Virus record (IMG/VR): IMGVR_UViG_2690316318_000021
Location: 1-17,379 of that record
Strand: one strand, 5' to 3'
DNA from: a virus
Lineage: Duplodnaviria > Heunggongvirae > Uroviricota > Caudoviricetes
DNA: 17,379 nucleotides
Each line of letters begins with the position of its first letter. Position 1 is the first letter of the stretch. Below, piece after piece: positions 3,001 through 9,000 of this stretch. Position numbers: made by a program.

Positions 3001-6000
3001 ACAATCAGGGCGATTAACATCACCTTTTGCTGCTTCATAGCCTGCTTCTCCTTGCCTTTCGGCACGTAAGAGGCTAACCTACATTTGTGAGACATAGATT
3101 GGGCCTCAGATTAATGTTAAGCGTCTTGCAGGACGCGTAATGTTAACTGGGGCTTTTCTCTATCTGCCTTTGGTGGCATGCCCGAGGCAGATAGCCTCAA
3201 GCACCCGCAGCAATTCTACTTAACTATCCTTTTCCCGCAAATCGTTTTTATCCCCAGCGGCAAATCGAATACACCACCAGCGCCACCGCCAGTGCAATAC
3301 CTACTGTTGCGAATGCCTCAGGCCAGGTCATCGATTCATCTCCGGCGGTTCTGGTAGTGGCATCCAGTGGGTTACATTGCGGCTCTGTGTTTCGAAGAAC
3401 TCCTCACCATTGCGGACAATATCAAAAAACTCACCGTCCCGATATTGCGCATAAAGAACGAATGCGCCATCACATAAAATAATGACGTGCTGACCATCAT
3501 TTGGCATTCGCTCACTACAGCTTATCCAACCATCCTGAGTTACCGGAGGAGTGCCCGATAGCGCGGTCTGCTCCAGTGATGCTTTTACAAACCACGCGGC
3601 CTGAACTATTACGCCATGAATCCAGCGCAAATCAGCATCGAGATCTTTCTTTTTCATCTTTTCGCCACTTAAAGCCTGGCTTATGTGGCTGCGTACCAGG
3701 TTTTCATGTAATTCCTTCGCATCCTCAATGGTAAAGCCACCAGGTAAACGACCCGGAGTTACCGGAGAGTTGCCAGCCAGCGCGTTCAACCTGTAAGCCT
3801 GGCTTACAGGTTCGGCACTATGAAGCATGGCAGCGCGGCAGGCCTCTTTGAGTACCCAGTCAACAGCGTCTTTCCATGCTCCTGTTTCGACTGGCGGATT
3901 TTCACGCTTAACCTGTTCATAAAAGCGCACCGCTTTAACCAGTCCGTCCGGCGCTGCCTGCCCTGTCTGCGCCCTGACCCACGCTACTCGTGCCGGATTC
4001 ATATGGCACATGTTGTGCCCTCTTTCTTCATGGTAATGCTCTTTATCCTCGTTAAACGGCAACACCTCATTCAGACCGGCACTTCTGAAATCAGCGTGTA
4101 ATTGTTCCAGTGCCTCTTCGCAAGGGGCACCAATTAATGTGAGATAATCGAAAAGATTGGCGCATAAACCATAATTTTGAGAAAACACTCCTCCGGGTTT
4201 CGCCCCATTACTCAGCCACAAATCATAAGCAATATAAAACCCGTAAAGCTGTTGTCTGATATTTCCTTTAATTTCTTGCATTATTTATTACCGCCCTTTC
4301 TGGCGGCCTCCTGATGTTCTGAGGGTGCAGGAATCCCTCCGGTTAAGGATTTAATAAAAATCGTTTCTGATTTAAATCTTCAGTATTTAGTTGTTAGTCG
4401 GTTTATAGCCTTTATGCTTCGGCCTTATTTCTCAGCCATACACAAACCGGGCCATCTTCGGTGTCATGTATTGAACCAATAAACCATCCATTGCCCTCTG
4501 GTCGTTCCGGTTCCCATGCAGAAATATCAGCATCACACGCATCAAGGTCAGCACATCCTTCATCTCTGAAGCAGAGGACGTATTGAAGATTATTTTCCTC
4601 CATCCATGCGTTAAACTCTTCCGTTGAAATAAGTTCTCTACCATCACAGAATTTTTCATATTCAGGATGCGTCCAGTAGCCATATTCATCACGTACTACT
4701 GGTATTTCTCTAATTTCATTCATTTCTGTTCTCCCACGTTTTCAGACTTTCACCACAGAACGGGCAAAAACACATTGCAACACCACGACCGATATATTGC
4801 CCAGAGTGAATTTGAGCAATATCTATGCCTGACTCGCCGGTGTTTATGTTCACACGTTCCGGGATAAATATGCCTTTACTCTTGAATGTTGGATTTCCAT
4901 ATTCGAGAGATTTTGCCAAAGCCGCGCACGGTTCTATCTGATTGCCATTAACCTGACATTTTGATGCGTTCACAGTACCACCTCCTGAAAATTTCCCCTC
5001 CAGAAAGCAAGCACGCGCTGCATAGCTTCGCTCTGACGGCACTCGCGACAAATTATGTTCTGTCGTCTGTCGTAACGACGTATTTCGCCATCTGGCAATG
5101 AATAAATCAGGTCAGGGTCGCTCTTCTTTTTCACTGCCGCTCTCGACATTTTTTTGCAGGCTTTTATCCAGTCCTTACGAGCCTGCTCCGAAGGAAATAT
5201 TCCATGTCCTGAACCATATACTGCGCCACTAACTACCAGCTCTTTCGCCAGAACTTCTATCAGGTGTCTCGTTGCTCCGGTTTCATCCTCCAGTTGCTTA
5301 CGTGTTTTCCTCCCATCTCTGCGTACCAGTTCCACAATACGCGCCTTCAGTTGCTCCCGATATTCAGGTGTAAAAACGTTTCTCATAAGCGCCTCACTTT
5401 TCCGACACAACGCGACTGGAGGAATCGACAATCTGTCGGACAATATCCCGGTGTTTATTCAGCTCCCGCAGTGCGGCACAGACTCGCTCCCACTTCTGGA
5501 CATGATTTTTCGCCCGGCGCAGTTCGCGGTTTGCCAGATGCAGCGATGGCAAAATCAGGTCATCGGCTTGTGTTTCGGTGAACGATGGCAGCGACTGCAC
5601 AATGTCCGCCACAGTTCCTGTTTTAATTTCTTCCTGTATTGCAGCTTCCGGCGCTGGTAACGCAACACCAGATGGCTGAGGAAAGGCTTTACCACCATTT
5701 CCCGTTACCGATGCGGCTTTCGGCTCTGCTGGTAAATTATCGTCCGGCATGCAGTAACGAAATTTACCGTTCTGATTTACACGAATCAGACGCCCTTTGC
5801 TGATTGCCATTGCCAGCGTTGAAGCTACTTTGCGTGATGTAGTACCGAACAACGTAGCCAGTTCATCCGCCGTTTGTGGTCCGCGTTGTTCAATCGTCGC
5901 GGTTAAATCGCACTCTGAGATTTTCGCTACTGTTGCTGTGGTGGTTTCTTCCGGCAGTTCTGCCTGCGCTGGCTGTTCCTGCTGAACGTTGTTATCAGCC

Positions 6001-9000
6001 ACACGCCAGGTGTACGCGCTTTTATCAACAAAACCAGCCTTTTTCAGTTCCCATAGTTCGTTCAGCACTTCTTCACGACTGACATCAAGTCGCGCAGCAA
6101 GTTCTATGGATGTGGCTTTTCCCATTGCTTTCAGTGCGTCAAAAACAGTCTCCATTAAATTTTTCTCCTGGTAAAACTTACTTCGTGATTCCTGGCTGGA
6201 CGACATTCGGGCGCCAGCTTTCCCAGTTAAAATTCACCCATCGTCCGCCGTTCATGGTCATGCGATCCATAATCCTCTCGCCGAGCAATGTTTTCATGGC
6301 CCCATAGTTCAGGTTTGTCAGCATTCCCACGCTACGCATCGACGCTGTCCGTCGATCAATAATCTGGTGCAGTACCACCTGCTCGTTTTTCGTCTCGCGC
6401 TGAATGCCAATCTCATCAAGAACCAGCAGATCCACTTCGCACAGTTCCCGCAAAAATTTTTCGCCTGACTGCCCGTCGTCATAGCTGGCATGCAGGGCAC
6501 TCATAACATCAGCCACAGTAACCACAATCACTGTCTGGCCATCTTTCAGCAGGCTATTCCCGATAGCTGCCGCCAGATGGTTTTTTCCGGTACCAGGTTT
6601 TCCGCTGAACGCAAAATTTGTACACCCGGTCATCAGTTCATCAGCGATGGATTTCGCCTGACTCAACGCGTATCGCTGCCCTTCGTTCTGCACCTGGTAA
6701 TTCGAAAACGAGCATTTGCGGTGCAACGGCTGGATGCCAGAGCGATTCAGGATTTTTTCCACCCGCAACTGACGATTCAGGCGGTTGATCTCCTCGCAAC
6801 GTTTCTGGCCTTCTGCAAGTTGCCACTCGCGCCACTCCGCCACCGTTCTGAATGGGGCGGTTACATGTGGTGGGGTCATTCTGCGGATACGTTCAAGAAC
6901 GCCACCTGCCGCAATATTTTTCATGGTTCGTTACCCCCTGAAGCCTGGCGGGATCGCGCTGTCCGGCAACGAGACGGTGTTAACCTGCCGAGGCAACGTC
7001 TCCGGTCGAACGCCTTTCGGCGCGAACAAGCCCTGGTATTCGTTGGCGATGCTGTGTCGAATAACCTGCTCAGGGGTAAAACCCTGCTGGCGGAATTTTT
7101 CCAGTTCCCGTATCGCCCCGTTAGCGCCCTGCTCCGTTCGAATCGGTTTTCGCAATGCCTGCCTGAACTGAACCCACTCATGCCAGAGTGTTTCCGGCAA
7201 CCACTCAGGCAGAGCTATGGCCTCTGGTTCGAATTTTTTAGCCGCTCGTTTTTGGCGAGGGGGGTTCAGGGGGAGATCAGTATTTATATCTTCCTCTTCA
7301 TCTTCCTCTGGTAACGCTTTTTGATTCGTTTGTGTAACGCTGGCAGCGTTACCTTTTCGTTTCAGCTCGCGTATTTTTGTAACTCTCTCGTTTGTAACCG
7401 CCCGTTTTTTAGAGCTTTTTCCGTTATGACGTTCAAAGTTAGGTAGAGAAAGCCCACCGTCATTTTCGACCAGCCATCCAACCTGAATTAACGCATCAGC
7501 AAAACCAGCCATAAAAGTGATGCGATCTATTGCACTTTTTGTAACGCCACGAGCGTTACAATCTGCGTTACCGTCTATCATTTGTTGATCCGCCCATGCC
7601 CAGAAGCGAATAACCTTCCCTAATGCGGCATCTGGATCAATATTCAGAATCTCAGCAAGCCTGAATATTTCCGGCTTATCCGGCGTAATAACCTCGAGCT
7701 TTATCCAGTTTGAAGCCATTTGTTTTCACCTTGTAACGCTCGCAGCGTTACATTTAACTGATACCGAACAAAACAGTCCGGCACGATTAATTTCAATCAA
7801 TGCACTACGACAGAATCGCCGGGCGAGCCACCGCCGCTGAAATGTGCTTTCCGGTAAACGGCCTGAACTGCATCATCATGCGCATCAATTGCCGTACTCA
7901 ACGCTTCCTGTGCCGCCAGCAATGCCCGGCGTTCCAGGGTATCGAAAATGCTGAGTCGGTGGCGCAGTTCGCGCGGAAGGATTGCCAGAATTGCAGGGAT
8001 CAGTTTCTGAATTTTTTCCCTTTGCGCTTCCGTTTCACCTTTTAACCAACGGTGATAGATGTTCTGCTGATTGTTCCAGTCTTTACCTGGTATCAGGGGC
8101 AATTCGCCGCCCCCCTGGCGCAGATATTCTTCAGTAATTGCATTGGCTACCCATGCCTGCCCTTTTTCGGCTGCCAGGGCTAACAACACTGATTCGATGT
8201 GCTCATGCCTGATTTTCATGAATCAACCGCTCCTATGCTGTTTTCGCTATGCTTACCGCCTGGGGGGAATACATCGTCAAGCCCACAATGAGCGCCAAGC
8301 CGATTAAGGGTAGAAACTATTTTTCTGCACTCCTCTAGCCCAGGGGTACGAAAATTTGCTTCGTAATTTGCCAGTCGGCTTTGTATCCACCCTAACTGAA
8401 CAGCGAGTTGTCTTTGAGACAACCCAAGCTGTTTTCGATATGTTGAAATTTTGTTCATCATTACCTCCTGCTTCTATTATTCACATTTCGTGAGCAAGAT
8501 CAACTACAGATACGTGAGTACCGCTAGTTTCACACATCGTGATAAAATCGGAGCCATGAAAACCATTGCAGAACAAATAGGCGAGCGACTAAAAGCCACT
8601 CGCCTAAATCGAGGATTAAGTATGGGAAACCTGGCAAAACTATGTGGTTGGTCAGGTTCTTCTCGTATTGCTAACTACGAAGCTGGCACCAGGAGCGTGG
8701 GGGCTGAGGATGCGATCATCCTCGGCCAAGTACTAGGCATTTCCCCCGCAGAATTAATGTTCGGTGAACAGGAAAACACTTACTCGTGGTTAAATGATAA
8801 CCAGAAAAAAATGCTAGAACTGTTTAATCAGCTCCCAGGATCGGAACAAGCACGCATGATTGATCTGTTCGAAATCCGTCTTCAAGAGCTTGATGAGTAT
8901 GTGGAAAAATATCTAAGAAGCAGGCAACAGAAAAAATCCTCCTAAGCCTTTAATCTCCCTCGATTCCAATCAAAAAGCTCTCGCTATTAGCGAGGGCTTT

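Follow-up and report, generated by a model that had tools for sequence, protein, structure and literature searches.

The lambda pR operon includes ren and the nin genes among its delayed-early genes, and plaques form without them (PMC10695390). A two-hybrid assay detected interaction of Ren with the Rex proteins, and Ren shares interaction partners with O (bioRxiv 10.1101/2021.04.19.439022). Overexpression of ydaW, a gene of the Escherichia coli K-12 prophage Rac, blocked the retron-Sen2 toxin RcaT in a screen (bioRxiv 10.1101/2020.06.22.160242), and DUF551 has been described as a portable domain (PMC10834534). Beyond these reports, the literature on DUF1627, DUF977, DUF551, ydaW, and Ren yielded no functional leads. 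Here we analyze a stretch of five genes, g1 to g5, at positions 3328-6155 of a Rac-family lambdoid prophage in which members of these families stand side by side. The window, by which we mean the whole stretch of DNA that was analyzed, spans 17,379 nucleotides. All five proteins fall into families already catalogued as Pfam DUFs or PHROGs, and the layout agrees with that of the lambda ren/nin chain and of the Rac ydaW locus. What is new here is confined to this combination of genes and the chimeric protein g5.

Our preferred reading is that the stretch represents the ren/left-nin accessory segment of an early-right (pR-type) operon, a set of exchangeable, non-essential delayed-early genes with a plausible role in counter-defense. 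We put the probability of this reading as a whole at roughly 0.55. We are quite confident that these are mosaic, independent, delayed-early accessory genes with the identities given below; the counter-defense mechanism, judged by itself, is a tentative proposal to which we give somewhat less than even odds.

Layout and identities of the five genes

The early-right genes of this prophage lie on the minus strand, and the stretch reads from 6155 to 3328, with the replication gene ydaV on one side and hok/sok on the other. A preliminary description of the window had placed five consecutive open reading frames (ORFs) here, between the replication genes and hok and at the position of the lambda nin region. 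We recovered all five at the same coordinates and sizes, at the ren/left-nin place of the lambdoid early-right operon, together with a sixth, 27-amino-acid (aa) ORF that had been missed.

5394-6155, minus strand: g1, 253 aa, with an ATG start behind AGGAG
4970-5386, minus strand: g2, 138 aa
4716-4973, minus strand: g3, 85 aa, with a GTG start behind CAGGAGG
4412-4723, minus strand: g4, 103 aa
4282-4411, minus strand: non-coding spacer of 130 nt between g4 and g5
3328-4281, minus strand: g5, 317 aa
3248-3331, minus strand: unannotated hydrophobic ORF of 27 aa, MTWPEAFATVGIALAVALVVYSICRWG, with an ATGA overlap with the g5 stop

Each of the five ORFs g1 to g5 has family support from a strong Pfam or PHROG match (E 1e-21 to 1e-127), and these are therefore real genes and not chance ORFs. 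The ydaV stop and the g1 start are 20 nt apart. Tight packing and translational coupling, as had been proposed for the stretch, are borne out for g2-g3-g4, in which the g3 GTG and the g2 stop overlap as GTGA and g4 begins, with its ATG, within the last 8 nt of g3, but not for g1 and g2, separated by 7 nt, or for g4 and g5, separated by 130 nt. The GTG of g3 aligns with the Met of its homologs. GC content is 0.42-0.43 across g3, g4, and the N-terminus of g5, against 0.50-0.54 elsewhere. Promoter-like and terminator-like sites within the stretch were no more frequent than in shuffled sequences, and a convincing terminator is first met beyond hok, at 2814-2797. Given that the five genes are co-oriented and chained, and that no promoter or terminator interrupts them, we expect delayed-early expression from an upstream early promoter.

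On its sequence, g1 is an intact ortholog of E. coli K-12 YdaW. It matches PF07789 (DUF1627; E 5.4e-94, 312.6 bits against a cut-off of 28.1) and phrog_630 (E 5.8e-127), and is 96% identical to YdaW over 151 aa, which is all that the truncated K-12 copy keeps. The two winged-helix-like segments reported earlier reappear as sub-threshold helix-turn-helix (HTH) matches at residues 4-46 and 84-130 and as PDB profile matches to a small archaeal regulator and to E3L-type winged helices, a likeness that is generic for winged helices only; g1 is accordingly predicted to be a protein with two of them. A Pro-rich linker is strikingly conserved in the family, and a C-terminal helical segment is conserved too.

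Alignment identifies g2 as a homolog of lambda Ren. The protein covers positions 2-134 of the 134 in PF06163 (DUF977; E 2.7e-28, 99.2 bits against a cut-off of 22.1), matches phrog_142, 'Ren-like exclusion protein' (E 5.6e-40), and aligns with lambda Ren by BLASTP at 36% identity over 58 aa (E 2e-8). Its C-terminal NIICRECRQSEAMQRVLAF motif is found in lambda Ren as well (CRQSxAMxRVLA), and when Ren is aligned with the family, N110, E115, C116, R117, S119, M122, R124, V125, and L126 do not vary. PHROG files the Ren family under 'moron, auxiliary metabolic gene and host takeover'; the family label reflects the classical ren phenotype, which is escape from Rex exclusion. The protein is basic (isoelectric point [pI] 9.85), with a winged helix at its N-terminus. 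Among PDB profiles, residues 12-60 match Z-alpha domains best (that of fish PKZ at E 6e-4, and also those of ADAR1 and vaccinia E3), but the Asn and Tyr that contact Z-DNA are replaced by Glu43 and Lys47. The likeness is therefore one of fold only, and we rejected an assignment of g2 as a Z-alpha domain.

The GTG start and CFCPFCG motif previously noted in g3 are present, and the protein belongs to phrog_4030 (E 1.1e-30). All 64 homologs are annotated as hypothetical. The family shares an invariant C-terminal motif, FCPFCG..L.TW (FCPFCG...LKTW in g3), as well as a conserved Cys16 and, usually, Cys6. From these cysteines together with the invariant FCPFCG we predict a four-Cys zinc site, and g3 is probably a small zinc-binding protein. 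It matched nothing in Pfam even at E<=1, and PDB profiles matched neither g3 nor g4. Membership in the Lar family (PF14354), whose members have two zinc knuckles in the order CPFCG ... CxxC ... WNxR, was rejected: besides the missing Pfam match, hhalign against four Lar domains paired 17 columns at the knuckle only, with a probability of 45%.

The description of g4 as highly acidic is apt (pI 4.14; 25 Asp/Glu versus 8 Lys/Arg). There are 230 close relatives in Enterobacterales, and a family profile retrieved 680 representative clusters (E<=0.001; representatives clustered at 50% identity) among 1.84 billion proteins, spread over phages of Proteobacteria. Some of these proteins consist of the g4-type domain by itself, and others carry it at one end or the other of a longer chain; g4 is a stand-alone copy of this widespread portable phage domain. 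Pfam has no model for it, its confident structural model matched no solved fold, and BFVD neighbors and tblastn matches in 83 phage records carried no informative annotation, nearly all being 'hypothetical'; two Burkholderia records label a relative as a Rex repressor. Fusion partners of the domain include Lar zinc ribbons, a Tad2-like domain, RNase T-like 3'-5' exonucleases, RdgC, and DHHA1. The fusion to Lar constitutes the Pseudomonas aeruginosa cluster P0431 (85 members, more than 800 contigs), annotated 'Lar family restriction alleviation protein.' Further fusions (P0330, P0401, P0368, and P0392), to Tad2-like, RNase T-like exonuclease, RdgC, and DHHA1 domains, are single metagenome proteins or small clusters. 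Two of the partner modules, phrog_60 and phrog_660, also form the middle of g5; a relationship between g4 and DUF551 itself was rejected (hhalign probability 0.3%).

The spacer that follows g4 is about 97% identical in approximately 83 g4 loci, which about equals the conservation of g4 itself. Its 3' ~70 nt precede unrelated genes elsewhere (DUF4014, DUF7167, and g5) in many E. coli genomes, and some match to the spacer occurs in 2294 of 5426 complete E. coli genomes. A small RNA (sRNA) or a terminator was considered and rejected: Rfam gave no match, and the fold z-score of about -1 on both strands was no better than that of shuffled sequences. The spacer is probably a recombination junction or a shared leader.

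As had been suggested from its C-terminus, g5 ends in DUF551 (PF04448; residues 251-314, E 4.7e-21, 75.9 bits against a cut-off of 22). BLASTP breakpoints divide the protein into modules at about residues 1-110, 110-157, and 147/169-250, followed by DUF551. Each module recurs at high identity in different proteins, and fourteen PHROGs match separate segments, a pattern that marks g5 as a chimera in which three or more exchangeable modules are joined, with DUF551 as the last. None of the best 120 of more than 7500 relatives exceeds 75% coverage of g5, and a single full-length relative, 80% identical, was found among viral contigs. The AlphaFold2 (AF2) model of g5 has a mean pLDDT (predicted local distance difference test) of 54.9 and is confident for DUF551 only, which is all-beta (10-residue block-mean pLDDT 77-91). 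A Foldseek search of this model against PDB returned nothing below E 0.38; a weak likeness to Tudor/Hfq-like beta-barrels involves DUF551 only. Searched singly by sequence, none of g1, g2, or g5 has a relative of solved structure.

The 27-aa ORF after g5 is intact in 58 of 63 related loci, where the ATGA overlap is kept whichever DUF551 gene precedes it. It lies about 150 nt upstream of the start of the mok ORF (3095) and about 210 nt upstream of the hok ATG. Its 79 synonymous and 88 non-synonymous changes are about equal in number, and we treat it as a putative gene; the RefSeq and GenBank records examined do not annotate it.

Independent assortment of the genes

Scored by megablast at a coverage of at least 80% in the 5426 complete E. 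coli genomes, g1 was present in 1305, g2 (this allele) in 41, g3 (this allele) in 28, and g4 together with the spacer in 762; g5 was absent from all of them. In no genome does as much as 80% of the whole block occur at a single place, and none of 159 related viral loci carries all five genes together. The variable distribution anticipated in the preliminary description is real, but its one block does not survive as a functional unit, and we rejected a single co-inherited five-gene operon or system. The closest full-length relative of g5 sits in a g1-g2-g5 arrangement that lacks g3 and g4. Because the genes are shuffled independently between phages, the stretch is a mosaic accessory region: it is ordinary lambdoid mosaicism, not one five-gene system, and as a typical set of mosaic lambdoid accessory genes it need not count as a new system.

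The 80 viral contigs that we chose for carrying g4 show the same shuffling at closer range. In these loci g4 is 92-99% identical, g2 is 45-74% identical, and g1 is 60-92% identical. The gene before g4 belongs to the g3 family in 54 of the 80 loci, at about 51% identity to g3, and is an unrelated 75-aa ORF without paired cysteines in the other 26. These numbers bear on the idea that g3 and g4 form a two-gene module, be it a toxin-antitoxin pair or a zinc ribbon and adaptor equivalent to the Lar fusions. The two genes are joined by their 8-nt start/stop overlap, a g3-family gene is the more common neighbor, one small partner is near-neutral and the other acidic, and g3 has a Lar-like CPFCG knuckle while the g4 domain is fused to Lar elsewhere. 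The frequent replacement by the 75-aa ORF, however, and the low identity of adjacent g3 relatives next to a g4 that is 92-99% identical, which indicates no co-evolution, argue against such a module, as does the failure of g3 to align with Lar beyond its knuckle. We consider it improbable; as a type II toxin-antitoxin pair it was rejected, given that 26 of 80 loci have no g3 relative and conservation of the two genes differs sharply.

The same slot in other strains holds HNH, DUF4014, Doc-toxin, or opposite-strand hypothetical genes, and the site between the DUF977 gene and hok is a cargo site. This raises the alternative that the genes are morons, prophage-expressed cargo for defense or superinfection exclusion that would protect the lysogen, and the PHROG category of the Ren family points the same way. 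Searches against PADLOC-DB 2.0, however, gave no defense-system match for any of the five: hits were confined to weak HTH-type matches for g1 (E 2e-4 and weaker) and one for g2 at E 0.006, with nothing for g3, g4, or g5. NCBIfam likewise lent no support to a defense system. A co-oriented chain that sits inside the repressed early operon and lacks both a promoter and a terminator of its own is moreover the opposite of typical moron architecture, and in the classical genetics of Toothman and Herskowitz, from 1980, Ren is said to shield the phage, not the host, from exclusion. Moron cargo is in our view a poor candidate.

One might also ask whether the stretch is merely filler without function that is decaying in a cryptic prophage. 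Points in favor are the truncation of ydaW in K-12 Rac, a frameshift in the DUF977 gene of one close relative, and the unusual chimeric make-up of g5, which no complete E. coli genome contains. Yet none of the five ORFs is disrupted; they have ribosome-binding sites, and their start/stop overlaps are conserved; residues that are invariant across the families of g1 to g4 indicate purifying selection; and the prophage still has its integrase, recET, replication, Q-like, and lysis-side genes. We regard decay as extremely unlikely.

Proposed role and its alternatives

In the mechanism that we propose, the proteins would be made early in lytic growth and would bind host or resident-prophage factors, blunting exclusion or defense. 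The target of g2, as of Ren, would be a Rex-type abortive-infection system, and that of g1, as of K-12 YdaW, a retron-type toxin. For g4 we envisage a small acidic module that binds other proteins or serves as a decoy, similar to those that other phages fuse to Lar and Tad2-like domains, and g5 would supply DUF551 as a portable targeting domain.

Several observations weigh against this mechanism. For g3, g4, and g5, all homologs seen are annotated as hypothetical save for the two Rex repressor labels. The retron result for YdaW comes from a single overexpression screen of the truncated K-12 allele. Guilt by association is weak for the g4 domain because most of its partners, such as phrog_60 and phrog_660, are modules of unknown function, and the Tad2, RdgC, and DHHA1 fusions are each one metagenome protein. 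The authors who reported the Ren-Rex interaction called Ren 'likely involved in DNA replication' (bioRxiv 10.1101/2021.04.19.439022). Finally, a helicase-loader gene lies directly before g1 or its DUF1627 relative in 50 of 51 related loci (the gene upstream of g1 in loci L006-L164), which fits a role in replication equally well. The loader is DnaC-type in 29 of these loci and distantly lambda-P-like in 21, and the constancy of DUF1627 despite this switch suggests that the gene is linked, by position or by function, to the end of the replication module.

This fixed neighborhood, together with the nuclease-type partners of the g4 domain, keeps alive an alternative in which the genes encode replication or recombination accessory factors. 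Here g1 and g2 would bind DNA and aid or regulate origin firing or the loader, and the downstream genes would modulate DNA metabolism in the manner of NinB and NinG. The partners that Ren shares with O agree with such a role, the g4-domain partners include 3'-5' exonuclease, RdgC, and DHHA1, and a DUF1367/NinB-like gene, recognized by PHROG, lies just downstream. Against it, lambda can do without ren and the nin genes, g3 and this allele of g2 are rare, g4 is missing from many Rac-like prophages that have the same replication module, and family, structure, and profile searches revealed no likeness to known replication proteins. We judge this alternative distinctly unlikely, if less so than a g3-g4 module or moron cargo.

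A bolder version of the counter-defense reading holds that g4, possibly with the zinc-knuckle protein g3, represents an undescribed, widespread phage counter-defense domain for restriction alleviation or immune evasion, and that the whole ren-side segment is a counter-defense island of Rac-type phages. Such a role for the g4 domain is hinted at by its natural fusions to Lar and Tad2-like domains. We think this version unlikely, though slightly ahead of the replication alternative; were it true, the island would set YdaW against retrons, Ren against Rex, and g4 against restriction, and recognition of g4 as an anti-restriction or anti-defense module would annotate several hundred phage protein clusters.

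The view that the five genes are uncharacterized stands in so far as none has an experimentally defined mechanism, and falls in so far as g1 is ydaW, g2 is of the Ren type, and g5 is a DUF551 protein, identities that are drawn from sequence comparison. Nor are the five all well-characterized housekeeping proteins of invariable distribution, though g2 does fall in the named Ren-type family. The suggestion that something undescribed resides here persists in a weak form, for g3 and g4. An intact YdaW beside a Ren homolog offers convenient material for the only functional leads that these families have, retron blocking and Rex escape. Remaining interest attaches first to the g4 domain, a common domain with a confidently predicted fold that is missing from both Pfam and PDB and recurs in fusions with restriction-alleviation domains, and then to two other conserved elements, the 27-aa ORF and the spacer that follows g4; all three are unannotated or uncharacterized.

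Prophage setting and comparison with described systems

The best E. coli match to the window is 93.4% identical over 85% of its length. The genes of the window are those of a Rac-like prophage and include recE/recT, ydaS/T/U/V, hok, a Q-like gene, and integrase. In annotated relatives the order is integrase, xis, recE/recT, ralR, kil and sieB, repressor, ydaS/ydaT, ydaU, and ydaV, followed by a variable stretch and then by hok, DUF1367, DUF1364, and the Q-like DUF1133 gene. Further features of the window are as follows.

6178-6924: ydaV, a DnaC-like loader gene with IstB/DnaC matches, flanking g1 upstream
2883-3206: hok/mok/sok, flanking the stretch downstream
2395-2607, minus strand: GTG-start ORF of 70 aa, phrog_1813, between hok and the DUF1367 gene
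14825-15034, plus strand: intact RalR/Lar, MRYEKVKPCPFCG..., on the other arm of the prophage
15033-15211, minus strand: RalA antitoxin sRNA (189 bits)

The position of the 70-aa phrog_1813 ORF is that of a gene annotated 'rem' (prophage antirepressor) in GenBank MN652886. Rfam matches to isrK and to C4 antisense RNA with its a1/b1 targets lie downstream of the Q-like gene and directly upstream of an ORF6N-domain (antirepressor-type) gene; together they make up an immunity module of the P1/P7 c4-ant style or one that resembles IsrK/anti-Q (665-863 and 1-612, both on the minus strand). The literature ties Pas sRNAs to DUF1627 neighborhoods; these sRNAs are located beside the lysis genes, not in the stretch. 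The prophage end (16774-17379) adjoins the SraC/RyeA-SdsR/RyeB sRNA pair and yebY, an attachment site that differs from that of K-12 Rac, and E. coli AH19B041 shows the same junction.

The nearest described counterpart of the stretch is the ren/left-nin segment of lambda. Both occupy the same position and orientation after the replication genes, both are chains of small genes with start/stop overlaps, and g2 is homologous in sequence to Ren. In lambda, however, Ren alone directly follows P, whereas here YdaW/DUF1627 stands between the loader gene and the Ren homolog. Lambda Ren has 96 aa against the 138 of g2, of which BLASTP aligns the C-terminal 58 aa only; lambda has no counterparts of g3, g4, and g5; and hok/sok is inserted here before the NinB-like gene. 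The comparison with K-12 Rac is closer for g1, which shares residues 1-151 at 96% identity and the same place after ydaV. The K-12 copy ends at about residue 151 through an internal deletion of Rac and lacks the Pro-rich linker and the conserved C-terminal segment, both of which g1 has.

For g3 and g4 the relevant system is Lar/RalR (PF14354), of which this prophage, with an intact RalR/Lar and RalA, has a bona fide representative on its other arm. The CPFCG knuckle is shared with g3, and prophage proteins of P. aeruginosa join the g4-type domain to true Lar domains, but the knuckle lies at the C-terminus of g3 and at the N-terminus of Lar, and g3 lacks the second CxxC. The mosaic DUF551 proteins Ea22 variant V2 of Stx phages and YfdS of CPS-53, lastly, resemble g5 in ending in DUF551 and in being built from exchangeable N-terminal and central modules. 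In contrast to these proteins, g5 lies in the early-right operon and not in the exo-xis region, bears no Ead/Ea22 signature, and combines its modules in a rare way.

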